Shown one piece after another: positions 3,015-34,909 of a DNA stretch of 36,877 nucleotides (positions are counted from its first letter, which is position 1; each line of letters starts with the position of its first letter). The notes under the pieces are model-generated. The model had not been told where the DNA came from. It did not search any database and saw nothing but the letters and a program-made list of their open reading frames with translations. Position numbers and translations under genes: made by a program. Origin of the DNA: an uncultured virus (IMG/VR IMGVR_UViG_3300021197_001002) (Duplodnaviria > Heunggongvirae > Uroviricota > Caudoviricetes); IMG/VR virus record IMGVR_UViG_3300021197_001002. The stretch is one strand, 5' to 3'.

Positions 3015-3026
3015 AATTCCACAACC

Positions 3027-3049
3027 TTATTCTCTTTGCCGATTTATAA
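3027..3049 (-). promoter_or_regulatory. Conserved viral promoter element TTATAAATCGGCAAAGAGAATAA (copy 1)
   Basis: Exact 23-mer containing an archaeal TATA box, 12 nt upstream of ATG 3014. Confidence 0.85.
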
Positions 3050-3051
3050 GG

Positions 3052-5080: not shown

Positions 5081-5084
5081 GTAA

Positions 5085-5387
5085 TCACCGGAATGCTCGT
5101 AGGAAGTCGTCTAAGTTTTGTTTCAATTTTTCCATTGTTTCTACAATCTCATTATCCATCAGATAACGTGCGTGTATAGTATAGAGAATATCGAGAGGAC
5201 CAACCGTATCAGGGAAGTCTGTCTCTTCATCTAACCATGAATCAATCGTGGTTTGTCTGTATGATGTACGAATGAAAGGAACCCTGTTAGGTAAGTTACC
5301 ATTCTCTTTGACTATGATTCTTATCGAATAGTCATCATCTAAAAATTCCTCTAAGAAACGTTGTATTGCTAATCCTTGTGCTTTCAT
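5085..5387 (-). CDS. Hypothetical protein
   Basis: 100-aa ORF with a GGAGG RBS, tightly packed in the operon. Confidence 0.75.
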   Translation of the reverse strand: MKAQGLAIQRFLEEFLDDDYSIRIIVKENGNLPNRVPFIRTSYRQTTIDSWLDEETDFPDTVGPLDILYTIHARYLMDNEIVETMEKLKQNLDDFLRAFR

Positions 5388-10856: not shown

Positions 10857-10879
10857 CTTTTCTCTTTGCCGATTTATAA
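10857..10879 (-). promoter_or_regulatory. Conserved viral promoter element (copy 2, variant TTATAAATCGGCAAAGAGAAAAG)
   Basis: 21/23 match to the consensus, 10 nt upstream of ATG 10846. Confidence 0.8.
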
Positions 10880-11011: not shown

Positions 11012-11977
11012 TCACAAACTCCCATCGTATAATTCAGGGAGGCCGAACCATTCAGGCTCGCCATCAGGACGTGTAGTGAATACCTTTCTTCGCTTGTCTT
11101 GAAGTTCAGGATTCATCTTCGCCTTAGAGAATTTGACATAGTAGTGCATCGCTAACAACTCACCATCTTCATCGAGTTCTTCTTCCTTCTCGGTAAGTAG
11201 GATGGTCGGTAAGTAGTTGTTCGTTCGCTTCTCCCAATCGGGTACAAAACGCTTGTTGGGTCCATAGAAGTCCTTAGTTGCCATGTGGGTTTCCCATATG
11301 ACCTTAACACCAAGTCGAACTAAATCACGAGACAATGCTGTGAGTTGGTGGAACCGTGTGTTACGGATAGCCCATGTCGCTTGCTTCTCAACCTTTGCTG
11401 AACCGCTTCCGTCTGCCGCATCAATGGCATCGTTAGACAAACCTAAGTCCACAATACGCATGTTGTTGGCACATATCTCCAACCATGAATCAACACCACT
11501 AATGATGACACCCCATACAGGGTTGCCCTTTGTTGCTTGGTCGTGTACATACTTCATGATGTCCATGACACGCTGGTGAGTAGCGGGATAGTTGTAAGCA
11601 GTACGGTCATTGACCGCCATTGCCCACGGGTTCCATGATACGATGTTGTCCTCTTCTGTGTGTAATGCGGAAGCAAGCATTGCTACTCCCATATCAAAGT
11701 CGAGTACGTGTAGTTTAGCGTTGGGGTCTTTGGTTGTATCTTTGGCAAACCAATCGAGCATGATGCCCGTCTTACATGTGCCATCAAATCCAGCCACTCC
11801 GATGAAGTCGTAGCGTTGTGCCTTAGCCTTCTCCATCATTGTTTGTTCGGCTCGTAGGTGAGCGAACGGGTCATCATTACTGACAGCCGCCGTTGCTTTC
11901 GCTTGTACCTTCGCCTTCGCCTTCGCTTCTTTTTCTTCGTTCTTAATTTCTGTTACTGTTGTTCCAAATCCTGACAT
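11012..11977 (-). CDS. RecA-fold ATPase (RadA/Sak4-like recombinase)
   Basis: Walker A GFDGTCKT, LDFDMG, Walker B-like IISGVDS and VIWETH. ATG 11977 follows a GGAGG RBS; adjacent to an SSB-like gene. Confidence 0.75.
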   Translation of the reverse strand: MSGFGTTVTEIKNEEKEAKAKAKVQAKATAAVSNDDPFAHLRAEQTMMEKAKAQRYDFIGVAGFDGTCKTGIMLDWFAKDTTKDPNAKLHVLDFDMGVAMLASALHTEEDNIVSWNPWAMAVNDRTAYNYPATHQRVMDIMKYVHDQATKGNPVWGVIISGVDSWLEICANNMRIVDLGLSNDAIDAADGSGSAKVEKQATWAIRNTRFHQLTALSRDLVRLGVKVIWETHMATKDFYGPNKRFVPDWEKRTNNYLPTILLTEKEEELDEDGELLAMHYYVKFSKAKMNPELQDKRRKVFTTRPDGEPEWFGLPELYDGSL

Positions 11978-11979
11978 AT

Positions 11980-13319
11980 TTATTCCTCCTNNNNNNNNNN
12001 NNNNNNNNNNNNNNNNNNNNNNNNNNNNNNNNNNNNNNNNNNNNNNNNNNNNNNNNNNNNNNNNNNNNNNNNNNNNNNNNNNNNNNNNNNACAATACCAT
12101 TGTATTCCTTCATACCTAAACGACCAAAGACAAGTACTGTAGAGCGTTCAGCGTATTCAAACGCCTCCTCACCCCATCCTGCTACGAACGGTTGAGTAAG
12201 GTTACCCACCGCACCTGCAATCCAGCATTGTACATCACCAGTAATACTACTTGATAGTGTCATAGAATAGTTGTAACCTTCGGGGTCAAAGTCGCTTTCA
12301 CGAGGCTCGCTGTTGAGCGATGTAACCAATCCCCTTGTGATAACCAACGGACCCCATTGACGACGCTCGCCACCAATGTCTCCGCTTTGCTTACCACGTT
12401 CATACGCATCATCCAATTCATCAATTGGTACGTAGTACTCATGGAAGGCAGGTAATGTCCAAAACTTTGAAGGTTGAAGTAGAGAGCGTACATCTTCGGG
12501 AAGGAACTCATCTGTGTATTCAATCTCAAAGTTACTGTAAACACCAAGTACATCCTTGAAATTATCTGATGCCTTCTCTCGTGGTGGAACAACTTGTATC
12601 TTACAAGGGCGACCTTGTTGGATATTGAGTTCCGTGAGTTCATTTGTCAAGTCAACACGCCATAGAGACACCTTGTTGTTCTTGACCAGTTGTTCTTCCT
12701 CATGTCCGAGGAAGTATGCGTATCGACCCATGCGTTTGTATGGCGCAGGGTCGCCGCTGTAGGATGTAAGACAGACCCAATCACTTCCTGATTGTAGTCC
12801 ATAAGGTGGGTTTTCATCACTCGATGCTTCAAGTTTCTTGACACCATCCTTTGTGTGTAAAGACCATACTGCACCAGTCTTTTCATATGCACCAAGACGA
12901 CCACTTCCGATTGCTTCGGATGGGTCATCTGCATACAACTTGAGATTGCTTTGTACAATGTTAGCGAGTCTGTCTCGCTTACGGTCTTGTACACCTAAGA
13001 ACGAACCAACCCATGTGGAGAGGTTCTTACTACTTCCACCGCTTTGCTTGCGAGTTTCAGTAAACACTTGTTCAGCCCAATCGACCAACAAATCTTCATC
13101 TTCATCAGCAGGGGAGTCGCAACCATAATGCGTTGTAATGTACTCAAGGTACATCTTCTTTGCATCTTCTATTGTCTTGTTTGTGCGCTTTGCATAGGCA
13201 TCCAAACGAAGCATTACTCCTTTGGGTAACCCATCCTCGCTCGCTTCTGCCTGTACAGCACCAAAGCCACTTCCTGTATCTTCTACGTTTTCGTATTCAT
13301 CTTCTTCTTTCCATGTCAT
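11980..13319 (-). CDS. Putative OB-fold ssDNA-binding protein (RPA-like), interrupted by a scaffold gap
   Basis: Acidic N-terminus and OB-like C-terminal strands (VITRGLV...MTLSS...VLVFGRL). ATG 13319 follows GGTGATTAAG; the likely end is GAG GAA TAA at 11980, after the N run. Confidence 0.6.
11991..12090. other. Assembly gap (100 N)
   Basis: Run of exactly 100 n, probably a placeholder length. Confidence 1.
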
Positions 13320-13324
13320 CTTAA

Positions 13325-13501
13325 TCACCAATCTTTCAATATTTTTTGTTCTATTTCCTTTGTTACTTCATACGCCTTGTCTACAGCAAAGACAACATCA
13401 TCTTCTCCTGTAGTAATCAAAGCGTGGAATATGATACTCATCATGAGGCAACGTGTTGTGTCTGCGCCCTTGTCGAGTGCGGGTTTGAAATCAAAACTCA
13501 T
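13325..13501 (-). CDS. Small hypothetical protein (58 aa, not in the ORF track)
   Basis: MSFDFKPALDKGADTTRCLMMSIIFHALITTGEDDVVFAVDKAYEVTKEIEQKILKDW; ATGA overlap with the RFC stop and fills the gap exactly. Confidence 0.7.
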   Translation of the reverse strand: MSFDFKPALDKGADTTRCLMMSIIFHALITTGEDDVVFAVDKAYEVTKEIEQKILKDW

Positions 13502-14435: not shown

Positions 14436-14458
14436 TTATTCTCTTTGCCGATTTATAA
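14436..14458 (-). promoter_or_regulatory. Conserved viral promoter element (copy 3)
   Basis: Exact 23-mer 11 nt upstream of ATG 14424; the TAA in its TATA box is also the upstream gene's stop codon. Confidence 0.85.
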
Positions 14459-17620: not shown

Positions 17621-18648
17621 ACGGTCATCTCCATTACCAAGTCCCAAGCCTTCTGCTTACGTCGTGCGAAAGGACCAAAGATTGCTGATTCAGTAGCCTT
17701 GATACTCTTCTCACCGTTGCGTAGTGTAGTAGCGTGATGGTCAAAGTATTCGGTTGCCGCATTGTATGCCGCCCATGCTGTACCTTCCATGTCTCCAATA
17801 AGATTCTTCTGTGTCGCAAGAAGCGATACTACCTTGTTGAGTTTGTTACGGGTACGGGTGTCGTCTGAAATCTCGCCATTCTCTTCACGCTTGAGGCCGA
17901 GTGTATCTACGAAGTATTCCTTCATGTCATCCAATTCCATCTCGACAGTCAATAGTGATTCGGCTTTATCGCCCCATGTAATGAAGTCCTGATTCATGAT
18001 ACCCAATGACTCTCTTGCCTCATCAACAGCATTGCCAAGTTTACTTGTGTGTCGCTTACTCATTACTGTAGTCGCATTACTTAGAGCGAGTGAGAGTGTG
18101 TTTTGACATACCACACGAATAGGTGTGGGTAAGAACTTTACTGCACCTGTACCATCGTGGTTGTTCGTGATAAGGAAGTATTGCTCAATAGGGTCTTGCC
18201 CATTGATGAGAATGGTTTCAGGCATCTTTGCCAATACCCATACCTTCTCACCGTTACCGAGCGCACCTGCTACTTCGATGGTCGCCTCTTGAGTTTGAAG
18301 AATCTCATCCATGAATGAGAATGCATCTGCATTCTGCAATGCTGTCCATACTTTACCTACTGATTTACCGTTACGAGTGAGTGGGATAAGCCCATCATCA
18401 CTCTCACGGAATACACCAAAGGTATTCGGTACAGGTTTAGATGCTTCGATAGAGAAGTGTTCGTGATTGGAAAGTTCGCTATAGAATAACGGTTTCTTAA
18501 CCACTTGCCAATTTAGATTTGCCTTGACTAATGCATCATGAGATGTCATCAGACCGCTTACGTTTGTTCCCAGTCCATGCCACGGAGTACTCCCCGCCCA
18601 TGCTGTCATGTGTTGCCCTGTTTCTGTTACTGCTATATTGTGTGCCAT
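17617..18648 (-). CDS. DUF932-family (phage/plasmid) protein
   Basis: MAHNI...PWHGLG, LQNADAF, AGALGNGEKVW, HDGTGA, TPIRVVCQNTL, RHT and GTAWAAYNAATEYFDH. Confidence 0.92.
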   Translation of the reverse strand: MAHNIAVTETGQHMTAWAGSTPWHGLGTNVSGLMTSHDALVKANLNWQVVKKPLFYSELSNHEHFSIEASKPVPNTFGVFRESDDGLIPLTRNGKSVGKVWTALQNADAFSFMDEILQTQEATIEVAGALGNGEKVWVLAKMPETILINGQDPIEQYFLITNNHDGTGAVKFLPTPIRVVCQNTLSLALSNATTVMSKRHTSKLGNAVDEARESLGIMNQDFITWGDKAESLLTVEMELDDMKEYFVDTLGLKREENGEISDDTRTRNKLNKVVSLLATQKNLIGDMEGTAWAAYNAATEYFDHHATTLRNGEKSIKATESAIFGPFARRKQKAWDLVMEMTV

Positions 18649-18650
18649 AT

Positions 18651-18977
18651 CTATTCCTCCTTCTTTTTCTTCATTAATTTGTCAATTATTCTATATTTTC
18701 TTTCCCACCGTTTTCGATTTCTTTCATTAACTATTTTTACCACAGGCTCATATAGTTCTTCACAAAACTCTTCTTCGGTAATACTTGCTTTCTTGAAATT
18801 CCAACACCCAACACTTATATTTCGTATTGAATACTCAGGCCGTTCGTCACCTTCTAATCCATATTGTACAATTATGTCAAATAAGGACTCGGTTTCTTCA
18901 CCTCCCCCATGATTTATTCGCTCGTATTCATATTCAAGCACTAGCCTCATCATCTCATCGTCAGTTCTTTTCCTCAT
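18651..18977 (-). CDS. Hypothetical protein
   Basis: 108-aa charged ORF with a GAGG RBS and an ATGA overlap. Confidence 0.7.
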   Translation of the reverse strand: MRKRTDDEMMRLVLEYEYERINHGGGEETESLFDIIVQYGLEGDERPEYSIRNISVGCWNFKKASITEEEFCEELYEPVVKIVNERNRKRWERKYRIIDKLMKKKKEE

Positions 18978-19684
18978 TCTTTCGTCCTCCTCATGGCTTC
19001 GACTTCCTCACAGTATGTTTTGGACAAGTCTATACCTATGCCCTTGCGATTCATTTTCTCTGCACACTTGGGAACAGAACCCGAACCCATCATAGGGTCA
19101 AGAACAATCATTCCTTCTTCACTGAACGATTCAATACACCTACGCACCAACTCTTCGGGGAATGCACAGGGATGGTCTTTATTGCGAGATGGCGGTATTC
19201 TCCACACTGAAAGGTATTTAGCGCAGTCTTTATTCCAATAGAAGCCTTTCGCCTTCTTTCCGAGGACATACAAATCCTCCTCGACCCGATAGAATCTAAC
19301 GGGATTGAATGCTTGCATACCGCACCTATCCCATGTTATGCGCTGGCGATAAACCATATCCGACTTCAAAATCCACTCAAGAGGAGACTTAACTTCAAAG
19401 TTGAAGATGCGGTCTTTATGGTTGTAAATCATTGTTCCCGTTGGCTTGAGGACTCTATGACATTCATTCAAAAAGCGTATTTGCCAATCCTCATATTCTT
19501 CATCAGTCATTTTATCATCATAAGAGTCATAGACGATGTTGGTTCTTCTCCAATAGTCTGCCTTTGCCTTCTGCGTGCGTCTGTTTCGCCAATTGTTATA
19601 GGGCGGAGATGTTATGATTAAATCAATAGAAGAATCTTCAAAGTCCTTCAAGACTTCTATACAATCGCCGTTAATTATTCTCAT
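18974..19684 (-). CDS. Site-specific DNA methyltransferase (N4-C/N6-A, beta class)
   Basis: GDCIEVL, catalytic TSPPY, HPCAFPEEL and SAM-binding LDPMMGSGS; start trimmed to ATG 19684. Confidence 0.93.
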   Translation of the reverse strand: MRIINGDCIEVLKDFEDSSIDLIITSPPYNNWRNRRTQKAKADYWRRTNIVYDSYDDKMTDEEYEDWQIRFLNECHRVLKPTGTMIYNHKDRIFNFEVKSPLEWILKSDMVYRQRITWDRCGMQAFNPVRFYRVEEDLYVLGKKAKGFYWNKDCAKYLSVWRIPPSRNKDHPCAFPEELVRRCIESFSEEGMIVLDPMMGSGSVPKCAEKMNRKGIGIDLSKTYCEEVEAMRRTKE

Positions 19685-19686
19685 AT

Positions 19687-19899
19687 CTATTCCTCCTGTT
19701 CTGCTAATTCTGCAATCCATCCTCGTTGTAGTGAGCAAGCGACACCATACGTAATCTGGTATCGTTCGTAGAAGTCATCAGCCGCTTCCCAACCACAGAC
19801 ATCAACCATCATCTCTATGTCTGTTCTGTCCCATTCATCCATACCTGCTGGTGCTATAAAGCAAGCAAGTTTTGCCATGTTCTTGTAATTCCATGCCAT
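19687..19899 (-). CDS. Hypothetical protein flanked by identical junction repeats
   Basis: 70-aa ORF between two GGAGGAATAGATATG copies. Confidence 0.75.
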   Translation of the reverse strand: MAWNYKNMAKLACFIAPAGMDEWDRTDIEMMVDVCGWEAADDFYERYQITYGVACSLQRGWIAELAEQEE

Positions 19900-19901
19900 A
19901 T

Positions 19902-20066
19902 CTATTCCTCCAATTCTATTTGAACATCATCCACAGCGAACAGGAACTTATCGAATGGTTCACCGAATAATGAGTGTACCACCCATAACTTCTCTTCGAT
20001 TTCGTCTTTATCTTCTGCTTCTATTTCACCTGTGTATGTTACTGTTACTGTATATGTTTTCTTCAT
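19902..20066 (-). CDS. Small hypothetical protein (54 aa, not in the ORF track)
   Basis: MKKTYTVTVTYTGEIEAEDKDEIEEKLWVVHSLFGEPFDKFLFAVDDVQIELEE; GGTGA RBS and ATGA overlap. Confidence 0.75.
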   Translation of the reverse strand: MKKTYTVTVTYTGEIEAEDKDEIEEKLWVVHSLFGEPFDKFLFAVDDVQIELEE

Positions 20067-20245
20067 TCTGTCACCACCTTTGCATCAATAATAGAGAACT
20101 TTTCAGGTGTGGTCTTAGTCATGTTATCCTTCACCACATCTTCAATTGTCCATCCATATGCTTCATACAAAGAACTTAAATGTCCGTCTTTTAATTCAGA
20201 TTCATCTATCCATATTAACCCAGTGAACCTAACCTTTTTCTTCAT
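20063..20245 (-). CDS. Small hypothetical protein
   Basis: 60 aa, flanked by the direct repeat TGACAGAATGAAGAAAA (20057-20073 and 20236-20252). Confidence 0.7.
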   Translation of the reverse strand: MKKKVRFTGLIWIDESELKDGHLSSLYEAYGWTIEDVVKDNMTKTTPEKFSIIDAKVVTE

Positions 20246-20442
20246 TCTGTCAACCCCTCTACGTGTTGTTGGGTAAGTATCTCTTCGACGTATGATTCTA
20301 ATTTCTCAGCCATTGCTCTATACTCTCTTGCCAAGTCAGTCGCCCTGTCTTTGAACTCTTCACGAGTCATGTGAACAACGTCACCCATAATGACATCGTT
20401 CAATTCCCTGTATTCCTGTGTTAATAAATCTAAATAATCCAT
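20242..20442 (-). CDS. Small hypothetical protein
   Basis: 66 aa; first gene after promoter copy 4. Confidence 0.75.
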   Translation of the reverse strand: MDYLDLLTQEYRELNDVIMGDVVHMTREEFKDRATDLAREYRAMAEKLESYVEEILTQQHVEGLTE

Positions 20443-20454
20443 CTTAAATCACCT

Positions 20455-20477
20455 TTATTCTCTTTGCCGATTTATAA
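20455..20477 (-). promoter_or_regulatory. Conserved viral promoter element (copy 4)
   Basis: Exact 23-mer 12 nt upstream of ATG 20442. Confidence 0.85.
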
Positions 20478-20485
20478 AGGAGTGG

Positions 20486-20887
20486 TCAAACCACATGCCC
20501 CTCGTCATCATAATCTATTCTTTCGTTGTCGTAGATGATACCATAGTCATCTAATGTTTCGCCCTCAAAGACTGGTCTGTGCCTTGTACCGTAATGATAC
20601 ATGGCCGACCATACCTTAGTACAAGCATCGTAGAAATCATTGTCAGGTATCGAGTTCTTGAAATTAGGATAGTCAATGTTCTCCACATAGTTCACCATAA
20701 ATTCTGCAACCTCTTCCATGTGGATGTCTGCCCTGTAAGGGTAATCCGCATCGGGGTCTGTGTAGACATCAGCCGCAGGGAACTGGTCAACAATATGACA
20801 CTCTTTCCTTGCCCTCACCAAAAGATGGTTGGGTATTTTCAAATGCTTGACAATACTAAGCCACCCATCACTCGTTGCTATCCACAC
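20486..20887 (-). CDS. Conserved hypothetical viral protein
   Basis: MWIATSDGWLSIV...LLVRAR...DYPYRA...IDYPNFK is a pattern recalled from other phage hypotheticals; GTG start after a GGAG RBS. Confidence 0.75.
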   Translation of the reverse strand: MWIATSDGWLSIVKHLKIPNHLLVRARKECHIVDQFPAADVYTDPDADYPYRADIHMEEVAEFMVNYVENIDYPNFKNSIPDNDFYDACTKVWSAMYHYGTRHRPVFEGETLDDYGIIYDNERIDYDDEGHVV

Positions 20888-21131
20888 GGTTATCCTCTCC
20901 TAAAATCATTTCAATGCCTTTGAACTCCCACACTTCAAACCAAATTGATTTACAGTTCCTACAAGCCACGTCTATTGACCCACTCATGAAACTGCTTCGG
21001 TATGTTATGTCGTCGCTTCCGCAGGAAGGGCAATGCACCGCTTCCTCTTGCTTTTGTTGTGAAAGTATAATTTCACATAGTTGTTTTTTCGTATTCTTCA
21101 TTAGTTGTTTTTCGTTCAATCCCATGCCCAT
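20868..21131 (-). CDS. Zn-ribbon protein
   Basis: CPSCGS...CRNC. Confidence 0.7.
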   Translation of the reverse strand: MGMGLNEKQLMKNTKKQLCEIILSQQKQEEAVHCPSCGSDDITYRSSFMSGSIDVACRNCKSIWFEVWEFKGIEMILGEDNRVDSNE

Positions 21132-21295
21132 TCCTCCATTGCATCTGTAAAGATAGAAATCAGTTCAGCCTTCTGAATGTCAGTTGTACAGGTATCGTAC
21201 AATCTTTCACCCAAAGTTTCTATCATATCCACTCTTTGATTAGCATTTGAGTGCTTCGTAAATTTATCTAATTCTTTCATCAGTATTCTAAACAT
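21116..21295 (-). CDS. Small hypothetical protein
   Basis: ATG 21295 after GGTGATTAAG; first gene after promoter copy 5. Confidence 0.65.
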   Translation of the reverse strand: MFRILMKELDKFTKHSNANQRVDMIETLGERLYDTCTTDIQKAELISIFTDAMEEWAWD

Positions 21296-21306
21296 CTTAA
21301 TCACCT

Positions 21307-21329
21307 TTATTCTCTTTGCCGATTTATAA
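21307..21329 (-). promoter_or_regulatory. Conserved viral promoter element (copy 5)
   Basis: Exact 23-mer embedded in the last codons of the C5 methyltransferase-like gene. Confidence 0.85.
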
Positions 21330-21987
21330 GGCTATCATTTCCCCATTGGTCAGCCATTGCATCAGCGATGCCTTGAAATGTGATACTCCTCACGTTAGCC
21401 CGTTCCTTCGGCGGGAGTTTAGCCGCCTCTACGTACCACGCTGGCATAGACTTACCACTCTTGAATACTGTTCTCGGTTGAGGCTCGACTACGTTAGTAG
21501 GCACGAGAGGGTCAAGACCCTTCAACCAAAAACCTGTACGCTTTTCAAATGGGTCGCCAAACTGATACGGATGAATGTATTGATTCGGTTTCCTGAATCG
21601 TGTTGACATAATACCAACAGGGTTCTCAACCACTATCTTTGGAATGTCTGCATTGATGAGTTTCATGAAGAACTCAACCGCCTCTTCACGTTGTTCTCTC
21701 CTGTTAGGGAAACGTGGATGAGGTCTGCGTTCTTCTACGGGAAGGTGTTTGTCATCGGGATGGTAATACCATTTGTTACCCGTAACTGTAAGGTATGTAC
21801 ATGGTGGGTGGGCAATCATCAAGTCCCACCCTTTTGTAAGGTCGATAACATCAAAGACATCGCCCTGAAAATGATACGGCGATTCATCTAAGGCAGGTTG
21901 AATGTCGCAGGACCATGCATCATGTCCCTTTGCTCGGAATGCTTCTCGCACTCGACCACTATATTCACAGGCTATTAGTACTCTCAT
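21307..21987 (-). CDS. Short C5-cytosine DNA methyltransferase-like protein
   Basis: MRVLIACEYSG (motif I variant), AHPPC (catalytic PC), ENP, and C-terminal RSITFQGIADAMADQW. Confidence 0.85.
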   Translation of the reverse strand: MRVLIACEYSGRVREAFRAKGHDAWSCDIQPALDESPYHFQGDVFDVIDLTKGWDLMIAHPPCTYLTVTGNKWYYHPDDKHLPVEERRPHPRFPNRREQREEAVEFFMKLINADIPKIVVENPVGIMSTRFRKPNQYIHPYQFGDPFEKRTGFWLKGLDPLVPTNVVEPQPRTVFKSGKSMPAWYVEAAKLPPKERANVRSITFQGIADAMADQWGNDSLINRQRE

Positions 21988-21991
21988 TCTT

Positions 21992-22489
21992 TCACCGCCA
22001 ATCTTTGTTGTCATGTATTCTTCTTAGGCTAACCGTATTGAAAACATGGTCATAGAGTATTTGCTTTGATGCTACTTTCTCTTTGAAAATATCTCCAATC
22101 TTCGGGCGTAATAATGCCATCAAATCGGTTACACTATCCGTATCGGAAGGATGTAAACCCATTTCAGAAATCAAAGTACGCAAGACAATGTAGCCCACGC
22201 CTCCTGTACGGTCCCGTCCATGTACACAATGGAGTAAGACATCCTTACCTTCATCGAGCAAACCAAGCACTAACTCGGATGCATGTTGCCAAATGTTCGG
22301 GTCGTCGTTATGCGCTCGGAAGTAGTAGTGATGTCGCTCTTGTTTATCGCTATCAATAAAGCGAGGTGGGTAACGACACAACGTAACAACCGTGTGTTTA
22401 GGTTCGAGTGTATCTCGAAAATCTTCAAGGTCACACATAGTGAGTGACGAGCCATTCTTAAATGTATATGATATATTTTCCATGTTCAT
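21992..22489 (-). CDS. Dual-specificity/tyrosine phosphatase (CX5R)
   Basis: VLLHCVHGRDRTG signature. Confidence 0.9.
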   Translation of the reverse strand: MNMENISYTFKNGSSLTMCDLEDFRDTLEPKHTVVTLCRYPPRFIDSDKQERHHYYFRAHNDDPNIWQHASELVLGLLDEGKDVLLHCVHGRDRTGGVGYIVLRTLISEMGLHPSDTDSVTDLMALLRPKIGDIFKEKVASKQILYDHVFNTVSLRRIHDNKDWR

Positions 22490-22764
22490 TCCTCCTCTTC
22501 ACGTAGGAATGCGAAATCATCTTCCGACCAATTATCAGTCTCCGTGAATTTATGGAATCGAGATATGCCGCACCTATCACATTGCATGTGAACTAAGTAA
22601 CCGTAGTCCATCGTATGTGTTTCCACGATAAGCCAATTATGAGCATTTTCTTTACAGATGGTTGTATTGTAAAGTGACCGTTCAAACTCTTCTAAAAGAC
22701 TCATTCTCTCTTTCACTTCTTCTAACTGCTTCGCTATTTTCTTTTTTTCTTCGTCTATTTTCAT
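22486..22764 (-). CDS. Hypothetical protein, coiled coil plus Cys/His finger
   Basis: C...HNW...CDRCG; GGAG RBS and ATGA overlaps. Confidence 0.7.
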   Translation of the reverse strand: MKIDEEKKKIAKQLEEVKERMSLLEEFERSLYNTTICKENAHNWLIVETHTMDYGYLVHMQCDRCGISRFHKFTETDNWSEDDFAFLREEEE

Positions 22765-22934
22765 TCTTTCATCTCCTTGTGATACCTTCCTTCATGGCAA
22801 TCGCCTTGACAACCCCAACACTGGTAAGAGCGTAAGAACCACGGCACAATTCTCCATTGTTTCGCACCGCCATCAAGACGTGTACGCTTGAAGTGGCGTT
22901 CTTTTCGTGGACACCAATACTTACCAAGATTCAC
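22761..22934 (-). CDS. Small Cys/His-rich protein (57 aa, not in the ORF track)
   Basis: GTG start inside a junction repeat: MNLGKYWCPRKERHFKRTRLDGGAKQWRIVPWFLRSYQCWGCQGDCHEGRYHKEMKE. Confidence 0.7.
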   Translation of the reverse strand: MNLGKYWCPRKERHFKRTRLDGGAKQWRIVPWFLRSYQCWGCQGDCHEGRYHKEMKE

Positions 22935-23065
22935 GCCTTCACCTCCACGCCTTTCATGAAACCGATGTCACCATTGGTGGTGCATACTTGGCACAACATG
23001 AAAGTGAAGTTGGTGTGTGGTGCTTCGCTAATTCTATCACACTTCGTACATTGTACTTGTATCAC
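22931..23065 (-). CDS. Micro-protein, Zn ribbon (44 aa)
   Basis: MIQVQCTKCDRISEAPHTNFTFMLCQVCTTNGDIGFMKGVEVKA; spans junction to junction. Confidence 0.8.
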   Translation of the reverse strand: MIQVQCTKCDRISEAPHTNFTFMLCQVCTTNGDIGFMKGVEVKA

Positions 23066-23166
23066 GCCGTCACCTCCTTACAACATTCTTCTGCATCGTT
23101 CTTGTCGGGGAAGCCACGACCACAGTTGCCGCATTGCCATTCGCTGAATAGGTATGCGTCGGTCAT
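23062..23166 (-). CDS. Micro-protein, Cys finger (34 aa)
   Basis: MTDAYLFSEWQCGNCGRGFPDKNDAEECCKEVTA; spans junction to junction. Confidence 0.8.
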   Translation of the reverse strand: MTDAYLFSEWQCGNCGRGFPDKNDAEECCKEVTA

Positions 23167-23459
23167 GCCGTCACCTCCTCAATCTCAATCGGTCCGTCGT
23201 CGGGTAACGGGTGTCGCACTCCTTCAAAGGGGTCAGTCATTTCAGGGGAACCCGTCTTGCGCCAATGTTCGGTTGCCATCATACCACACTTCCAACATGT
23301 CGAAACTCCGACCACCCATTCAATCCCACCACTCCAAAAATCAAGGTCGGGATGCCCCCACCTGTGGTCACCGAAATTCGGACCACAAGAGGGAATGACA
23401 TCATCCGTTTTATCCCCATGCTCATTAACCAATTGCTCTCTCTTTTCTTTGTCACTCAT
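23163..23459 (-). CDS. Small Cys/His protein ending EEVTA
   Basis: 98 aa, C...H...CWKCG; spans junction to junction. Confidence 0.8.
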   Translation of the reverse strand: MSDKEKREQLVNEHGDKTDDVIPSCGPNFGDHRWGHPDLDFWSGGIEWVVGVSTCWKCGMMATEHWRKTGSPEMTDPFEGVRHPLPDDGPIEIEEVTA

Positions 23460-23689
23460 GCCGTCACCTCCACGCCTCGTAGTTTTTCTTTCGTTTCGTC
23501 AATCTTGTTTTGAATAGTCTGTTTGTATTTCACTATACCTTCCTCCGTTATGCGATTCTCTAAATCCTTTATCCTTTGTCGTAATTGAAATCTCTTAACA
23601 CTCGCTCGGACTTTCTCTCTCCCTTCGGGAGTAGCCTTGTATCGTTTGTTTGCTTCCGCTTTCTTCTCTTTGCTACTGTATGCCATCAC
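23456..23689 (-). CDS. Small basic coiled-coil protein ending GVEVTA
   Basis: 77 aa, Lys/Arg-rich; spans junction to junction. Confidence 0.8.
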   Translation of the reverse strand: MMAYSSKEKKAEANKRYKATPEGREKVRASVKRFQLRQRIKDLENRITEEGIVKYKQTIQNKIDETKEKLRGVEVTA

Positions 23690-23805
23690 GCCGTCACCTC
23701 CACGCCCTGTTCATTGCATTCAACTTCTTCGCCCTGTTCGTTTAGGAAAAAGAAAATGTTGATTGATGAATCGTAATAAATGTCACTTGAGTATTTGTAA
23801 ATCAC
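23686..23805 (-). CDS. Micro-protein (39 aa)
   Basis: MIYKYSSDIYYDSSINIFFFLNEQGEEVECNEQGVEVTA; spans junction to junction. Confidence 0.7.
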   Translation of the reverse strand: MIYKYSSDIYYDSSINIFFFLNEQGEEVECNEQGVEVTA

Positions 23806-23963
23806 GCCGTCACCTCCACGCTTCTGTTAGGGTGATTGTTTATTTCTTCCAAGTGTTCTTCAAGCACCGCATAGGTATCTGCAAGTTCATCAAGTATTCT
23901 TTGCATCTCTTTCATAGCCGCTTCGTAGCCTTCTGCTAATCCATCCATGTATGTTTTGCTCAC
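23802..23963 (-). CDS. Micro-protein, acidic helix (53 aa)
   Basis: MSKTYMDGLAEGYEAAMKEMQRILDELADTYAVLEEHLEEINNHPNRSVEVTA. Confidence 0.78.
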   Translation of the reverse strand: MSKTYMDGLAEGYEAAMKEMQRILDELADTYAVLEEHLEEINNHPNRSVEVTA

Positions 23964-24070
23964 GCCGTCACCTCCACGCTCAATCTAATTGCTTCATCGT
24001 AAGCCTTCTTGAGAGGCCAACCCTTCTTGAGTAGGTCAATGTAATACGCCCTGTGTATAGCCCAATTCAT
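23960..24070 (-). CDS. Micro-protein (36 aa)
   Basis: MNWAIHRAYYIDLLKKGWPLKKAYDEAIRLSVEVTA. Confidence 0.75.
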   Translation of the reverse strand: MNWAIHRAYYIDLLKKGWPLKKAYDEAIRLSVEVTA

Positions 24071-24618
24071 GCCGTCACCTCCACGCCTTGCCACCAATCG
24101 GGGGCGGGTGTACCCTTCTCCCACTTGGCGAACTGTTTGGAATGGTAATAGCGACGGTATGCTTCGATGGCAAACTTAGGATAAGCATGGTACACAACCT
24201 CACCATCGACAGGTTCAGGTCTGTACTCATCGGGCATAGCCAATGCGAATGGTGTGAGGTCACCCATAGGTATGAGAAGAATCATCTTTAGCATTGTATG
24301 AATCGGACCGTGACATGCGTGAACATCTACATTGTTGAAACGACGGTCATATTCTCGCAGTAATTCAACACCGTGTAAAGCAAGCCAACCAAAGTTATCA
24401 CGAGAATCTCCCGACCATACTGTGCATGGATGATGAGCGTAGCCACCCTTGTAGGGCTTACCTGCTTTGGTGAGGGGCATCTGCTCATCAGTTGCACCAT
24501 GCCTACGCAGGGCTGATGCCATCATCTGTGCGACCTCGACGCACATCTTTGGAACATGCTTGTCGCAATGCATTCGTGCCGCAGTAATTGGGTTTCTATC
24601 TAATACAAATATGTTCAT
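24067..24618 (-). CDS. Pyrimidine-dimer DNA glycosylase (endonuclease V-like) family protein
   Basis: MNIFVLD...HCDKHVPKMCVEVAQM, HHPCTVW, AMPDEY, AYRRYY and a W..P.WW C-terminus, as in this family. Confidence 0.8.
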   Translation of the reverse strand: MNIFVLDRNPITAARMHCDKHVPKMCVEVAQMMASALRRHGATDEQMPLTKAGKPYKGGYAHHPCTVWSGDSRDNFGWLALHGVELLREYDRRFNNVDVHACHGPIHTMLKMILLIPMGDLTPFALAMPDEYRPEPVDGEVVYHAYPKFAIEAYRRYYHSKQFAKWEKGTPAPDWWQGVEVTA

Positions 24619-24719
24619 TCTGATTCCTCCTCTTTACAATACGGGCAGTATTCGTAACCGATGTCAAACGACTTACCGCATTCAGGACACGTCATGGTTG
24701 GGTACAATTTTACATTCAT
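24615..24719 (-). CDS. Micro-protein, Zn ribbon (34 aa, not in the ORF track)
   Basis: MNVKLYPTMTCPECGKSFDIGYEYCPYCKEEESE; flanked by identical GGAGGAATCAGAATGA (24615-24630 and 24716-24731). Confidence 0.8.
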   Translation of the reverse strand: MNVKLYPTMTCPECGKSFDIGYEYCPYCKEEESE

Positions 24720-25039
24720 TCTGATTCCTCCCCTGCTGTAAAGTGGAAAAAGTGGTCGATGATAGTCCTCGCACGATGCAACTCTTCATCAGACGGACTG
24801 TATTCATAATGGAACGCTTCAGCCTCGTAACAGGTATACTCCGCCGCCCGTGTAAGGTATTGCTTTACACGCTTCTTAGATTCTAATTCCTCATCATAAA
24901 TATCCCATCTATGTATCGCATGTGCCAACATTTCAGCACACCTATCCAAGTCCCACACTACGGGGTTCATTGGTATTTTCATCATGATTGTATCATTCCT
25001 TCGTTCCACAGGAACCCATGCTCTACCGTAACTTACCAT
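24716..25039 (-). CDS. Hypothetical protein
   Basis: ATG 25039 after GGTGATTAAG; ends EESE in a junction repeat. Confidence 0.7.
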   Translation of the reverse strand: MVSYGRAWVPVERRNDTIMMKIPMNPVVWDLDRCAEMLAHAIHRWDIYDEELESKKRVKQYLTRAAEYTCYEAEAFHYEYSPSDEELHRARTIIDHFFHFTAGEESE

Positions 25040-25044
25040 CTTAA

Positions 25045-25506
25045 TCACCCAATCCTGTATATGTAGTACACCGTTCTATCAACCTGTATCGGAATCTCTC
25101 TACCATCATACGGTGAGAGTAAATGCCCTCGACCATCAGATGATACTGCGTCATCAACAAAGGCATCAAAGTCGTTTAACATAGACTTGAGTACATCATT
25201 TGCATCCTCGCTCATTTTATCTTGCACAACCTGTATTCTTTTTGAATCCACTCCCGTGTGTGCTTGGAGAAACGTTGAACTGAATGCCCATACAGTTTCT
25301 TCAATGTGTTCACGTACTGCTTCGTCAGCCTCTTCATCTGTGTAGACAAGGTAATCATTATCAATGAAGCCTTCCACATCTTCAAAGTCAATGCTATCGA
25401 GATGATGTGCGAGTGCCAATATCCTTGGCAAATTATATGAGTCACACATTTCTGTTGCATTGTCCCATACTCTATCTTTCATGTTGCTCGTTGTTATACT
25501 ATCCAT
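25045..25506 (-). CDS. Highly acidic protein, possible ArdA-like antirestriction DNA mimic
   Basis: Asp/Glu-rich with DFDAFVDDAV..DG..YYIYRI at the C-terminus; first gene after promoter copy 6. Function is inferred. Confidence 0.5.
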   Translation of the reverse strand: MDSITTSNMKDRVWDNATEMCDSYNLPRILALAHHLDSIDFEDVEGFIDNDYLVYTDEEADEAVREHIEETVWAFSSTFLQAHTGVDSKRIQVVQDKMSEDANDVLKSMLNDFDAFVDDAVSSDGRGHLLSPYDGREIPIQVDRTVYYIYRIG

Positions 25507-25530
25507 ATTTTCACTTCCTTGCTTTCACTC

Positions 25531-25553
25531 TTATTCTCTTTGCCGATTTATAA
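25531..25553 (-). promoter_or_regulatory. Conserved viral promoter element (copy 6)
   Basis: Exact 23-mer 24 nt upstream of ATG 25506. Confidence 0.85.
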
Positions 25554-25568
25554 AGGAGAGTTGCCGAA

Positions 25569-26243
25569 TCAAGCAACTCGTTGTGCAACATCTTGTATTC
25601 GCTGTTGCATAATGTTACGGGTATCAGGGTTGCGTATCGCATTCAATGCTTGCGTCATTGCATCCTCTCCTCCGTAAGTATCAAAGGAACGGCCTAAGTC
25701 CTGTTCCGTGATGTGTCCTAATGCTCTTGGGTTCTTCTCTCGTAGTGTATCGAGTTCACCTACTGATGTACCAAAGGCTGAACCTTTGGGTGCGCCTTGC
25801 GCTCGGAAAGGACCTGCGCCCCCTACGTCCACGTAGGAGAGTTCCCCTGTCGGTCTGCGTAGTGCGTTGTCGTTATGCATACCAAGCATATCCCAATTGC
25901 TGATTGTTGCATGAGGCACGAAGTCCTGTGTGAGTTGTTGTCTATCTCTACTTACATTCATGGGTAAAGCATCTTCTTCAAAGCGGGTTAGCATTGTTGG
26001 TTGCCCCTGTATGTTTCGTAGTTGTGCTTCGGGTACTGGTACGCCGAGTTCATTGAGGAATTGGTTCATGTCAAATTCATTGAGTATGTGCTGTGGGTGT
26101 GCGCCTCGCTTACCGACAAAGGAACCTTGTTCTGTATCGAATCGCCTCGCCCCTGTCGAACCGCCGAGTGGAGTACCCCTATTGTTTTGAATGAAAGCAA
26201 ATGCTTCATCCATTGGATTCCCCATGAAAGTATCACGCACCAT
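25569..26243 (-). CDS. Atypical kinase-fold protein (HipA/PI3-PI4 kinase-like)
   Basis: Gly loop LGGSTGA, FVGK, NE helix, LGVPVP, catalytic loop NWDMLGMHNDN and YVDVG (DxG). Confidence 0.7.
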   Translation of the reverse strand: MVRDTFMGNPMDEAFAFIQNNRGTPLGGSTGARRFDTEQGSFVGKRGAHPQHILNEFDMNQFLNELGVPVPEAQLRNIQGQPTMLTRFEEDALPMNVSRDRQQLTQDFVPHATISNWDMLGMHNDNALRRPTGELSYVDVGGAGPFRAQGAPKGSAFGTSVGELDTLREKNPRALGHITEQDLGRSFDTYGGEDAMTQALNAIRNPDTRNIMQQRIQDVAQRVA

Positions 26244-26249
26244 CTTGTA

Positions 26250-26837
26250 TTATACTTCTTCGTCTGTAGGGAAGTAAATGTCATCTGGTTTGTTACCTAT
26301 GACATCTGATAATGGTACATTCATTTGTTTAGCAATGCCCTCAAGATATTCTTTGGCATTGTTGTGAATCTCTACAACCTTTGGAGGTCGTTGATATGGG
26401 AAGGGTTCATCTTCGGGTATCAGTCCATCTAACTGTCCATCCACGAAAGCGGCGTATACGTTCTCGTATACATAGCCCTCTTCGTCTAAGATGTCCCAAT
26501 CCCAATCTTCCACCTTTGCATAGACTGATTTGTTACTCACATACATTGCTAATGGAATTAATGAAACCCATGATACAGGAACATCGAATGTTTCAGCAAT
26601 GTGCTCATATAATGCGTGTCCAATTAACCTTTTATCATAAGGGGTATCGAATATGAATTCAGATTGTGCGGCGTACATCGTGTGATGATATGCCTTCTCT
26701 TCTGTGAGTTTGAGTAGATTACCTTTGAGTTTTTCAAAGAGCAGTATTGCCTTTGATAATTCTTCATGTTCAATCTTGTCTAACGCTTTTAGCGAGACAT
26801 ACAGTTTACTTATCTTCTCTTCTAATATCCATTTCAT
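26250..26837 (-). CDS. Hypothetical protein
   Basis: 195-aa ORF with a GGAGG RBS and an ATGA overlap. Confidence 0.75.
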   Translation of the reverse strand: MKWILEEKISKLYVSLKALDKIEHEELSKAILLFEKLKGNLLKLTEEKAYHHTMYAAQSEFIFDTPYDKRLIGHALYEHIAETFDVPVSWVSLIPLAMYVSNKSVYAKVEDWDWDILDEEGYVYENVYAAFVDGQLDGLIPEDEPFPYQRPPKVVEIHNNAKEYLEGIAKQMNVPLSDVIGNKPDDIYFPTDEEV

Positions 26838-27121
26838 TCAATCAACCTCCGTAAGTCATCTGCTATTGTTTCGTACAAGTCGCCAATGTTAGAGCCGACA
26901 CAATCTAAGACGAACTGCATTTGTTCTTTGATACCTTCACGCAACCGCTTGACTTCTTCAAGAAGAAGTGGTGCGTCTGCTATGAGATGTTTGTCTGCTA
27001 TCAAGTATAATCCCGCATCGTCTGTTAATGGAGTGTTTCCAATTGCTTTTCGCACGATATTACCGTCTTTCCAACACCACAATCCTTCTGTGTGTCCTTC
27101 GTATTTGTCTGTGTCAATCAT
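26834..27121 (-). CDS. MIDTDK-family paralogue 4 (Ead/Ea22-like)
   Basis: MIDTDKYEGHTEGLW...LIADAPLLLEEVKRLRE; start trimmed to the shared ATG. Confidence 0.8.
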   Translation of the reverse strand: MIDTDKYEGHTEGLWCWKDGNIVRKAIGNTPLTDDAGLYLIADKHLIADAPLLLEEVKRLREGIKEQMQFVLDCVGSNIGDLYETIADDLRRLIE

Positions 27122-27410
27122 TCTTCTCACCCCAAACATAGTCATCAAAGTCCATCATCGCTGAATCATTGTGGAGAACTTGTTTGTAAGCCCATTTAGT
27201 CGCCCTTGCTAACTGTTCACTCAACCTCTTGATGTAAGCATATTGTTCGTCTGATTCTTCACGCAACCGCTTGACTTCTGCGAGCAGTAGTGGTGCATCA
27301 CTTACAAGTTTCCTGTCTGCATCTTCCGCCCATCGGGGGAGAACATTTGCGAACATTTGCCAACGCCCAATGTTCTCAATGTGTCCTTCGTATTTGTCTG
27401 TGTCAATCAT
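27114..27410 (-). CDS. MIDTDK-family paralogue 3 (Ead/Ea22-like)
   Basis: MIDTDKYEGHIEN...LVSDAPLLLAEVKRLRE. Confidence 0.8.
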   Translation of the reverse strand: MIDTDKYEGHIENIGRWQMFANVLPRWAEDADRKLVSDAPLLLAEVKRLREESDEQYAYIKRLSEQLARATKWAYKQVLHNDSAMMDFDDYVWGEKND

Positions 27411-27705
27411 TCTTCTCAACTCTCCCGTATGTGTATTGAAGCACCACTTGAATATGATTCTCAAGAAGCCATTGCTTCAATTCATTAAACTGCTTGACTT
27501 CTTCAAGGAGAAGTGGTGCGTCTGCTATGAGTGAAATGTTAGGGTGATGCTCAAGGTCATTGTCAGTAAAGTAAGATGTTTCAGTCACTCGCACCCCATA
27601 ACAACTTACGATGTCAATGTGTGAAACCTCATCATCGTAGGGTTGCCCTTCGGCAATTTGCCACGGTGCAGGTGAGTGTCCTTCGTATTTGTCTGTGTCA
27701 ATCAT
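27403..27705 (-). CDS. MIDTDK-family paralogue 2 (Ead/Ea22-like)
   Basis: MIDTDKYEGHSPAPW...NISLIADAPLLLEEVKQ, resembling the phage HTPGPW...NAxLIAxAP pattern. Confidence 0.8.
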   Translation of the reverse strand: MIDTDKYEGHSPAPWQIAEGQPYDDEVSHIDIVSCYGVRVTETSYFTDNDLEHHPNISLIADAPLLLEEVKQFNELKQWLLENHIQVVLQYTYGRVEKND

Positions 27706-27869
27706 TCAATCACCGCCTTCATTTGCTTTCGTAGTTCCTTGTATGATGATTGTGATTTAGCGAGTGCTTCCTTCTTAATCTCAAGTTCGTGTCGTAACCG
27801 CTTGACTTCTTTCTCTAATTCATCCAACGATACTCTCGCTGATTCTATCCATTTGTCTGTGTCAATCAT
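27702..27869 (-). CDS. MIDTDK-family paralogue 1, short form (55 aa, not in the ORF track)
   Basis: MIDTDKWIESARVSLDELEKEVKRLRHELEIKKEALAKSQSSYKELRKQMKAVIE; GGAGGTGA RBS. Confidence 0.8.
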   Translation of the reverse strand: MIDTDKWIESARVSLDELEKEVKRLRHELEIKKEALAKSQSSYKELRKQMKAVIE

Positions 27870-28087
27870 TCTGTCACCTCCAGATGTGATGGATGAGGTA
27901 AATTCACTTGTTTAATTGCTTTAACTGCGCCTATATTCCATCTGTCATCTATCATCTGTGCGAGTTCAAGGATGAGGTCTTTGTCAAAGTTGTAGTAGTT
28001 ATCATTCATTGCATCAATGAGTTGCCTTACAGTATCACCGTAGCCAATCATGTGCATCATTAAGTCAAACATTTCTTCGGTAATCAT
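27866..28087 (-). CDS. Hypothetical protein
   Basis: 73 aa ending LEVTE (GGAGGTGACAGAATGA). Confidence 0.7.
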   Translation of the reverse strand: MITEEMFDLMMHMIGYGDTVRQLIDAMNDNYYNFDKDLILELAQMIDDRWNIGAVKAIKQVNLPHPSHLEVTE

Positions 28088-28585: not shown

Positions 28586-28608
28586 TTATTCTCTTTGCCG
28601 ATTTATAA
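28586..28608 (-). promoter_or_regulatory. Conserved viral promoter element (copy 7)
   Basis: Exact 23-mer 22 nt upstream of ATG 28563. Confidence 0.85.
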
Positions 28609-31174: not shown

Positions 31175-31197
31175 TTATTCTCTTTGCCGATTTATAA
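31175..31197 (-). promoter_or_regulatory. Conserved viral promoter element (copy 8)
   Basis: Exact 23-mer 23 nt upstream of ATG 31151. Confidence 0.85.
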
Positions 31198-34886: not shown

Positions 34887-34909
34887 TTATTCTCTTTGCC
34901 GATTTATAA
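34887..34909 (-). promoter_or_regulatory. Conserved viral promoter element (copy 9)
   Basis: Exact 23-mer 25 nt upstream of ATG 34861. Confidence 0.85.

Follow-up and report, generated by a model that had tools for sequence, protein, structure and literature searches.

Why should a row of small, unrelated virus genes be joined to one another by the same few nucleotides? The question is raised by a stretch of DNA of 36,877 nucleotides (nt) from an uncultured virus (IMG/VR record IMGVR_UViG_3300021197_001002), the whole of which is called the window below. On its minus strand, positions 22761..24618 carry an array of micro-genes separated by near-identical copies of a short junction, here called J. 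An earlier note on this DNA had proposed that J is a portable unit of expression and recombination, working much like an integron array with no integrase in view. Comparison with related virus records, cellular genomes and environmental contigs supports that proposal: J is probably a junction for translational coupling and at the same time a linker of short homology over which gene cassettes are exchanged, an analogue within coding sequence of the shuffling attributed to PeSL elements (early promoter plus stem-loop) of T4-type phages.

Anatomy of the junction and of the genes it joins

The junction has the form (GCGT)GGAGGTGA-CGGC-RTGA, in which R is A or G, and is 16-20 nt long. A pattern search with GGAGGTGAMGGCRTGA found eight exact matches in the window, on the minus strand only, with the 16-mers starting at 22931, 23062, 23163, 23456, 23686, 23802, 23960 and 24067; the number of copies and their spacings (131, 101, 293, 230, 116, 158 and 107) agree with the description in the earlier note. 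A ninth J-like site with two mismatches lies at 27866. In dinucleotide shuffles the mean was 0.06 matches, and not one of 100 had as many as nine. All eight copies consist of GGAGGTGA, a 4-nt spacer and RTGA and lie inside the upstream open reading frame (ORF), so that neighbouring array genes overlap by 4 nt and leave no intergenic space. Judged by its layout, J looks like a translationally coupled gene junction, with an overlapping stop and start and a Shine-Dalgarno (SD) sequence within the upstream ORF. Overlapping stop and start codons (ATGA or GTGA) with an SD in the upstream gene are the classical arrangement for coupling in operons. The upstream GCGT, which had been described as conserved, precedes the core in six of the eight window copies and is replaced by TGAG and GTAA in the other two; that window genes outside the array use spacers different from that of J was seen again in their start contexts. 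The 22 pairs of inverted repeats found in 22700-24700 include none tied to J, and J is without self-complementarity.

Every interval between two copies is a single ORF on the minus strand, opened by the RTG of one copy and closed by the TGA of the following copy, and the earlier claim of exactly one ORF per interval was confirmed for all seven. The ORFs encode 36, 53, 39, 77, 98, 34 and 44 amino acids (aa), a 183-aa gene precedes them and a 57-aa gene comes last. All seven spacings equal 2 modulo 3, and by our own arithmetic the chance of 381 stop-free codons in the required frames is about (61/64)^381 = 1e-8. Eight proteins carry the C-terminal tail EVTA or EVKA; in the 183-aa gene the last codons (GVEVTA, stop) are themselves the first J copy. 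The same eight fall into eight different BLAST clusters and are thus unrelated at the BLAST level, as had been said of these consecutive proteins ending in EV(T/K)A. The features of the array are listed below in coding order, with remarks on the nearest relative, a virus record called G001.

24067..24618, minus strand: 183-aa Pyr_excise-like gene, head of the array (PF03013, E 4e-6; phrog_624, E 1e-51)
24067..24086, minus strand: J copy 8, the most upstream on the coding strand (20-mer GCGTGGAGGTGACGGCATGA)
23960..24070, minus strand: 36-aa micro-gene, cluster 88 (not in G001, exact J to J)
23960..23979, minus strand: J copy 7 (20-mer, GTGA form)
23802..23963, minus strand: 53-aa micro-gene, cluster 29 (diverged allele in G001)
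23802..23821, minus strand: J copy 6
23686..23805, minus strand: 39-aa micro-gene, cluster 49 (not in G001, J to J)
23686..23705, minus strand: J copy 5
23456..23689, minus strand: 77-aa Lys/Glu-rich micro-gene, cluster 89 (99% identical in G001)
23456..23475, minus strand: J copy 4
23163..23459, minus strand: 98-aa gene (unrelated 31-aa gene in its place in G001)
23163..23178, minus strand: J copy 3 (16-mer; TGAG, not GCGT, upstream)
23062..23166, minus strand: 34-aa four-Cys micro-gene, cluster 37 (five different contexts)
23062..23077, minus strand: J copy 2 (16-mer; GTAA upstream)
22931..23065, minus strand: 44-aa CxxC...CxxC micro-gene, cluster 90 (not in G001)
22931..22950, minus strand: J copy 1, the last on the coding strand (variant GGAGGTGAAGGCGTGA, GCGT upstream)
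22761..22934, minus strand: 57-aa Cys/His-rich gene (starts at the last J, ends in the non-J junction AAGGAGATGAAAGAATGA; not in G001)

Several window products have CxxC...CxxC or four-Cys patterns. Pfam returned no family for any micro-gene product, and PHROGs returned one marginal match, phrog_2429, for the 53-aa protein. The arrangement seen in the window recurs more widely. In the window and loci L127-L283 there are 108 unique J-to-J intervals of up to 1600 nt, and 89 of them hold a single RTG-to-TGA ORF. Their spacing is 2 modulo 3 in 90 cases and 1 modulo 3 in 16, the latter being expected from two overlapped genes. The products form 56 families, of which 37 are singletons, and have a median length of 51 aa. 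The pooled ratio of nonsynonymous to synonymous change (pN/pS) over 20 same-length pairs, with the junction-coded codons removed, is 0.23, a value raised by one aberrant pair in the pool. On this measure the micro-genes are under purifying selection.

Gene exchange at the junction

The earlier note had named three findings that would speak against its proposal: relatives that keep the same gene order with diverged junctions, indels whose breakpoints miss the repeat, and a 16-mer that is simply the genome-wide consensus of the ribosome-binding site (RBS). The comparisons gave none of the three. The closest one is with G001, which shares 55% of the window's sampled 31-letter words and whose syntenic blocks are 94-99% identical. 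When the arrays are aligned, all five indel or replacement events break inside junctions. The 36-aa gene (107 bp) and the 39-aa gene (116 bp) are each present in the window only, from J to J, and the 98-aa gene gives way in G001 to an unrelated 31-aa gene bounded by the same two J copies. For the 53-aa gene blastn gives 86% identity, between flanks of 98-99%. The 44-aa and 57-aa genes (291 bp together) occur in the window only, and here the breakpoint lies in the AAGGAG common to J and the non-J junction AAGGAGATGAAAGAATGA. The 34-aa protein ends in KEMKE in G001 and in KEVTA in the window, which indicates that the tail goes with the junction and not with the protein.

A wider set of relatives was drawn from IMG/VR, where 180 contigs encode a homolog of the 183-aa protein; the best 80 of the 180, together with the window, make up the 81 loci used below. 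In many of the 80 the Pyr_excise-like gene ends in a J copy, behind which come 0-9 more at varying distances; the remotest relatives, those under about 58% protein identity, for the most part carry the gene but no J. Taken from the side of the junction, 56 of the 77 J 20-mer loci have the Pyr_excise-like gene within about 4 kb and 21 do not have it nearby. Gene order is not kept: across the 80 loci, members of one cassette family turn up at changing positions and beside changing neighbours. In the window the 36-aa family comes first and the 39-aa family third; elsewhere the 39-aa family opens the array in L235, L244, L246 and L247, and the 36-aa family opens it in L265 but stands seventh in L263. 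The 34-aa family is found in five contexts. In alignments that include the flanks, nucleotide similarity starts at one J and stops at the next. The bases 5′ of the J core (GCGT or others) move with the upstream cassette, so the exchanges must fall in the 16-nt core.

The cassettes are also more alike than the genes beside them. Across 36 pairs of J-to-J cassettes the median identity is 0.917 against 0.72 for the adjacent Pyr_excise-like gene, with the cassette ahead in 33 of the 36, a contrast biased by the fact that short families cluster only when similar. Cassette identities of 92-100% are frequent beside a gene at 64-77%. The 36-aa cassette of the window is 97-100% identical in L263 and L265, where the Pyr_excise-like gene is 64-65% identical (100% against 64% in L265). 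Despite the clustering bias, the occurrence of near-identical cassettes in divergent backgrounds is real. A corresponding contrast for non-J genes (median identity 0.55 versus 0.68) was not used as a control because of the same bias in clustering short proteins.

Breakpoints were counted in two ways. The first used 136 high-scoring segment pairs (HSPs) of at least 93% identity and at least 60 nt between otherwise divergent loci, giving 263 non-edge ends and 9 ends at locus edges. J, which takes up 0.4% of positions, holds 87 of the 263 ends; other junctions (5.5% of positions) hold 56, and the remaining 94% of positions hold 120. The second used 34 pairs of close relatives with 195 unique breakpoints, of which 32 fall in J (36 junctions available), 87 in other junctions (295 available) and 76 elsewhere. 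Thus breakpoints do not miss the repeat among close pairs any more than against G001. Per junction J is roughly three times hotter than non-J, and gene junctions are generally fluid in these viruses.

Environmental contigs, whose mapping had been suggested as a check for precise junction-to-junction deletions, give the same picture. Parts of 22400-24800 are contained in 20 runs from 12 studies, and contigs of four runs (four studies) were placed on the region. The Logan contig index uses 31-letter words, and Logan contigs are built with k=31. Among the 15 joints listed, beyond which there are nine further joints, 29 of 30 ends are at most 6 nt away from the edge of a J copy. Nine of the 15 have sides of 20-25 nt, possibly a misplaced repeat, and were set aside. 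The six with sides of at least 84 nt have 11 of 12 ends at J (again among the joints listed) and are as follows.

22929 to 23061: skip of 131 in X6; the 44-aa gene deleted J to J and placed elsewhere
23162 to 23456: skip of 293 in X6 and X9; the 98-aa gene deleted J to J
23706 to 23959: joint in X6
23315 to 23686: replacement in X6 and X9, with one end off J
23816 to 23079: joint that goes back, in X6 and X9
24064 to 22929: joint that goes back, in X6

The two joints that go back represent re-ordering, not circles. A re-ordered array in one X6 contig has the 44-aa gene, about 280 unknown bases and then the 77-aa, 34-aa, 57-aa and 92-aa genes, with no 98-aa gene. The X1 contig equals 22400-23715 with 0 differences, and X1 is possibly the source sample of the window. 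Contig coverage has dips in depth, for example at 23858-23938 in all four runs.

Coupling signal, linker or recombination site

Whether J is simply the way these viruses start their genes can be judged from the 1614 unique gene-start contexts of the 81 loci, counts that depend on the simple SD-biased gene caller used. They comprise 1062 RTGA overlaps with a GGAGG-like SD and an A-rich spacer (about two thirds of gene starts), 435 non-overlapped starts and 117 J copies; the commonest other 20-mer junction has 6 copies. Counted as unique contexts, the 8-mer GGAGGTGA is found 174 times on the coding strand against 8 times on the opposite one, and in 161 of the 174 it is followed by N4-RTG (any four letters, then the start). 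Among these 161 the spacer is CGGC in 115 and GCGT stands upstream in 102, and the remaining spacers are mostly single-base variants of CGGC (CAGC 11, AGGC 6, GCGC 4 and others). The strongest SD of these genomes is therefore found almost only as an element of J. Its near confinement to the J context is more readily explained by descent or homogenisation than by independent convergence. Four whole related records (37-90 kb) each have one cluster of J, and these clusters take in 21 of the 22 copies. J is not the general RBS consensus.

In cellular genomes (596 Gb) the J 20-mer was found in 79 stretches (L284-L362), 77 of them with a single copy, mostly in Paraburkholderia, Streptomyces and Saccharopolyspora; two that were checked have 65-68% GC. 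These single copies presumably reflect a strong SD with GTGA put to use independently of the virus, at one conserved junction in each genus. No title among the cellular matches of the 20-mer names Poseidoniales, in a collection that holds one genome per species and mostly bacteria; this gives no sign of J as a consensus of the host genome and falls short of proof. Two cellular contigs carry several copies, L348 (NZMJ01000078.1, from a metagenome-assembled genome titled Maricaulis sp.) with 5 and L338 (CAXXDF010000003.1, from one titled Opitutales) with 2. Both encode a homolog of the Pyr_excise-like protein (71% and 65% identity) and cassettes of the window, which makes them look viral, and they are probably magrovirus-like contigs mis-binned into bacterial genomes. 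A scan of IMG/VR with the 16-mer was unspecific, giving among the matches listed mostly single copies in unrelated contigs, and was replaced by the 20-mer scan and the search anchored on the 183-aa protein.

Other junctions are reused on a smaller scale. Across the 81 loci (the window and L204-L283) protein tails track the SD of the next gene, as EESE, EEEE, EMKE or EVTA. A second junction type, GGAGGAATCAGAATGAA, has two copies on the minus strand, at 24614-24630 and 24715-24731, flanking a 34-aa zinc-ribbon gene (24615-24719; DUF7575/Zn_ribbon matches), in place of which G001 has a 90-aa gene; both proteins upstream of GGAGGAATCAGAATGAA end in EESE. A third, GGAGGAATAGATATG, lies on the minus strand at 18646-18660, 19682-19696 and 19897-19911, and with one mismatch at 11975-11989, and precedes three or four unrelated genes. 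The region 26834-27705 was considered as a second junction array and rejected, since it consists of tandem paralogous genes of about 100 aa (cluster 1, with 52 members over the loci and a weak match to phrog_1273). There are three copies of these in the window and apparently more in G001 (2938-5240), and repeats of 30-45 nt mark the boundaries between them.

What J might do can be put together as follows. The array would be a hyperplastic stretch of an operon 3′ of the Pyr_excise-like gene, made up of small accessory genes of 29-100 aa, many of them zinc-ribbon-like, which J joins head to tail. For expression, the 8-nt SD, the fixed 4-nt spacer and the overlapping start and stop would allow promoterless micro-genes to be translated by coupling or re-initiation, and the tail (V)EVTA would be imposed on every upstream protein as a side effect. 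For recombination, the same 16-nt core bounds the cassettes at every border, and on the comparative patterns above this suggests that J acts as a short-homology linker. Through crossover, annealing or template switching between any pair of copies, whether in the same genome or in co-infecting relatives, whole genes could then be lost, gained, replaced or re-ordered without a seam and with the frame kept. The agents would be the general recombination and replication machinery of virus or host, with no dedicated integrase. The integrase-free character claimed earlier holds: no tyrosine recombinase (PF00589) was found among the 62 window proteins or in any of the four related records (34-85% complete), and the control search found it in 14 of 14 genomes. 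As to the claim of a portable unit of expression and recombination, the exchange of genes at J is backed by comparison; the mechanism we infer.

We consider this reading likely, and several points weigh against it. That J homology causes the crossovers, beyond the position of J at a gene boundary, is an interpretation of sequence patterns, and breaks at non-J junctions, at about one third of the rate, speak against it. Selection for intact genes could also confine the surviving breakpoints to gene boundaries. The excess at J is confounded, J cassettes being small and probably dispensable genes in a variable island, and 16-20 nt is short for recombination of the RecA/RadA type. Rad51/RadA (PF08423) was found in none of the four related records, a weak negative at 34-85% completeness. 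G001 has a different gene upstream of the 183-aa gene, exchanged at a non-J junction. Outside any junction lie 120 of the 263 HSP ends and 76 of the 195 close-pair breakpoints, and in 3 of the 36 cassette pairs the cassette is less similar than the flanking gene. To these are added the clustering bias in the identity contrast and, for the environmental joints, both the nine set aside and the restriction of the figures to the 15 listed.

In a simpler account J is only an optimised coupling signal, illegitimate recombination strikes anywhere and selection keeps the events at gene boundaries; J would look like a breakpoint because it borders small, dispensable genes. About two thirds of starts (1062/1614) are RTGA overlaps behind a GGAGG-type SD in any case, non-J junctions are common breakpoints (87 on 295), and in one event of the window a J is joined to a non-J junction over no more than AAGGAG. 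Such a signal does not call for CGGC and GCGT, which lie outside the SD, to be kept across unrelated cassettes, nor for the 8-nt SD to be scarce elsewhere. The breakpoint rate is about three times higher at J (32/36 versus 87/295), J-to-J events are seamless with no scars or partial junctions, and near-identical cassettes have both ends at J in backgrounds that are 64-70% identical. We therefore regard the simpler account as unlikely, though it is the main rival.

A stronger form of the linker idea would give archaeal viruses an integrase-free cassette system with J as its dedicated crossover site, served by a nicking or annealing activity of the virus, possibly the Pyr_excise-like protein. 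This is highly doubtful; if it were true, micro-gene cassettes would be excised, perhaps as circles, and captured between co-infecting magroviruses, in what could be called a translational integron. Very improbable, too, is that J is the recognition site of an unrecognised viral site-specific recombinase or nicking enzyme, again with the Pyr_excise-like protein as candidate, which would make the array a true analogue of the integron. An enzyme of this kind would suit the position of the array, which in many relatives begins right where the Pyr_excise-like gene ends, the presence of that gene within about 4 kb in 56 of 77 loci, and a J core invariant beyond the needs of an SD, and many viral proteins here are without a family match among which it could be sought. 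It is at odds with the lack of a tyrosine recombinase and of any hairpin or inverted repeat at J, with the 21 of 77 loci that have no such gene nearby, and with the distant relatives that have the gene without J. The event with a non-J partner, joined through 6 nt of microhomology, does not suggest a strict recognition site either.

The conserved feature might instead be the peptide tail (V)EVTA, as a tag for degradation, sorting or interaction, with the DNA repeat as its by-product. Eight consecutive proteins share the tail and it recurs in relatives. Yet the spacer is exactly CGGC in 115 of the 161 GGAGGTGA-N4-RTG contexts, so that synonymous positions are fixed too; among the listed spacer variants only CAGC (11) is synonymous by our codon reading, and AGGC, GCGC, CGGA, TGGC, CAGT, CAGA, AGGA and CGGT each change a residue. 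The 34-aa gene, with an identical body, has the tail KEMKE in G001, and the tails at other junctions (EESE, EEEE, EMKE) follow their own SDs. A peptide tag is hardly plausible on these grounds. Least credible of all is that the array or its variants are chimeric assemblies made at the repeat: all the sequences are metagenome assemblies and the window has a run of N at 11991-12090, but J, at 16-20 nt, is below the length of 31-letter words, which makes chimeras induced by the repeat unlikely, and the same cassettes and J-to-J variants occur in IMG/VR contigs of many samples and in runs of four studies.

The virus, its putative promoters and known systems

All plausible genes of the window are on the minus strand. 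Pfam searches of its 62 proteins found a Cpn60_TCP1 thermosome subunit, DNA_pol_B, an SNF2 helicase, DNA methyltransferases, an AAA/DNA_pol3_delta2/Rad17 protein (an RFC-like clamp-loader ATPase), and ERCC4 and PD-(D/E)XK nucleases; structural genes were not found within the window. According to the passages of Philosof et al. (2017; PMC5434244) that bear on this, an archaeal-type replication module is a mark of magroviruses, groups A and D have the thermosome subunit and group A has the SNF2 helicase, all 26 magrovirus genomes encode a RadA-like ATPase, SSB and several nucleases, and magroviruses are abundant in surface oceans. With its archaeal replication module, thermosome and SNF2 helicase, the gene content of the window is group A-like, and the window looks like part of a magrovirus-like genome, that is, of a tailed double-stranded DNA virus of Marine Group II (Poseidoniales) archaea. 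INPHARED phages gave only three matches of 71-165 nt to 20001-28000 in a distant blastn search, and no annotated relative. The run of N mentioned above is a scaffold gap of 100 letters inside the ORF track around 11012-13331.

A TATA-box motif, TTATAAATCGGCAAAGAGAA, with the longer consensus CCTTTATAAATCGGCAAAGAGAATAA, occurs in nine exact copies (0 expected) on the minus strand, each shortly upstream of a gene start, at 3030-3049, 10860-10879, 14439-14458, 20458-20477, 21310-21329, 25534-25553, 28589-28608, 31178-31197 and 34890-34909. Its TATA box gives it the look of an archaeal-type promoter, reiterated so as to split the window into operons. Together with the gene content, it bears out the earlier guess that the virus is archaeal. 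Two copies enclose the array:

25534..25553, minus strand: TATA-box motif upstream of the array operon, putative promoter
21310..21329, minus strand: next TATA-box motif, putative start of the next transcription unit

From this position between two copies, the micro-genes appear to share one transcription unit of about 4.2 kb. Searches of the array region for sigma-70 promoter-like and terminator-like sites gave 10 versus 9.5 and 4 versus 3.7 in shuffles, which is no excess. Copies of the TATA-box motif are also present in G001, and the motif could itself be a PeSL-like linker. Directly upstream of one copy, at 25558-25579 on the minus strand, stands a hairpin with an 8-bp stem (GAGTTGC...GCAACTC); this layout of terminator, then promoter, recalls PeSLs and the motif of the haloarchaeal virus HGTV-1 considered below.

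If J works both as an expression signal and as a linker, it would explain how viruses could keep a fluid pool of micro-genes without breaking the operon. In the loci examined, the genes between J copies represent at least 56 protein families, and most small genes of magroviruses are unknown; the 16-20-mer offers a handle for fishing accessory cassettes from metagenomes and for gauging how much natural virus populations recombine. No account of a junction like this was found in those papers on magroviruses or Poseidoniales viruses that were searched or in full-text searches of a library that is a limited collection of main texts.

The idea of such a linker has precedent. The PeSL of T4-type phages was described as integron-like and integrase-free in 2010 (Arbiol et al., PMC2839356). 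It is an early promoter with a stem-loop that precedes ORFans in hyperplastic regions and bounds indels between close relatives (PMC2839356; Comeau et al., 2014, PMC4122927). PeSL mini-circles were shown experimentally, and the authors compare the system with integrons and with Botstein's linker sequences (PMC2839356). J resembles the PeSL as a short expression signal repeated between small ORFan genes of a hyperplastic region, with no integrase, where indels and replacements between close relatives are bounded by the repeat. As far as those sources describe it, the PeSL is intergenic and transcriptional (sigma-70 promoter and terminator stem-loop) and makes each cassette its own transcription unit. 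In contrast, J has neither promoter nor hairpin, lies inside coding sequence, is translational, works within what appears to be one operon, belongs to a virus of Archaea and is known from sequence alone.

Closer in host is HGTV-1, a haloarchaeal myovirus with a motif of TATA box and inverted repeat before its ORFs (Sencilo et al., 2013, in PMC3950731). Like J, this is a repeated regulatory motif in an archaeal tailed virus, and regulation and shuffling analogous to PeSLs were proposed for it; the motif is of promoter type, and shuffling is suggested, not documented, as far as the passage in PMC3950731 says. The window has a nine-copy TATA-box motif of its own, separate from J.

With integrons the array shares promoterless, unrelated small genes in one orientation, apparent expression from upstream, variable content and order, and borders made of a repeated site. 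An integron has IntI, attI, attC and Pc; the array is without an IntI-type recombinase and without an attC-like imperfect palindrome, its repeat being a coding junction of 16-20 nt. Because the integrase and attC are lacking, the array is not an integron.

Ordinary coupled junctions, for their part, are not identical across unrelated gene pairs, whereas J is reused 117 times with its non-SD positions fixed. The array is thus best placed with modular shuffling of the linker or PeSL type, in a translational rather than a promoter form whose mechanism we infer. It would extend that model from promoters to translational junctions in coding sequence, and from bacteria to viruses of uncultivated archaea.

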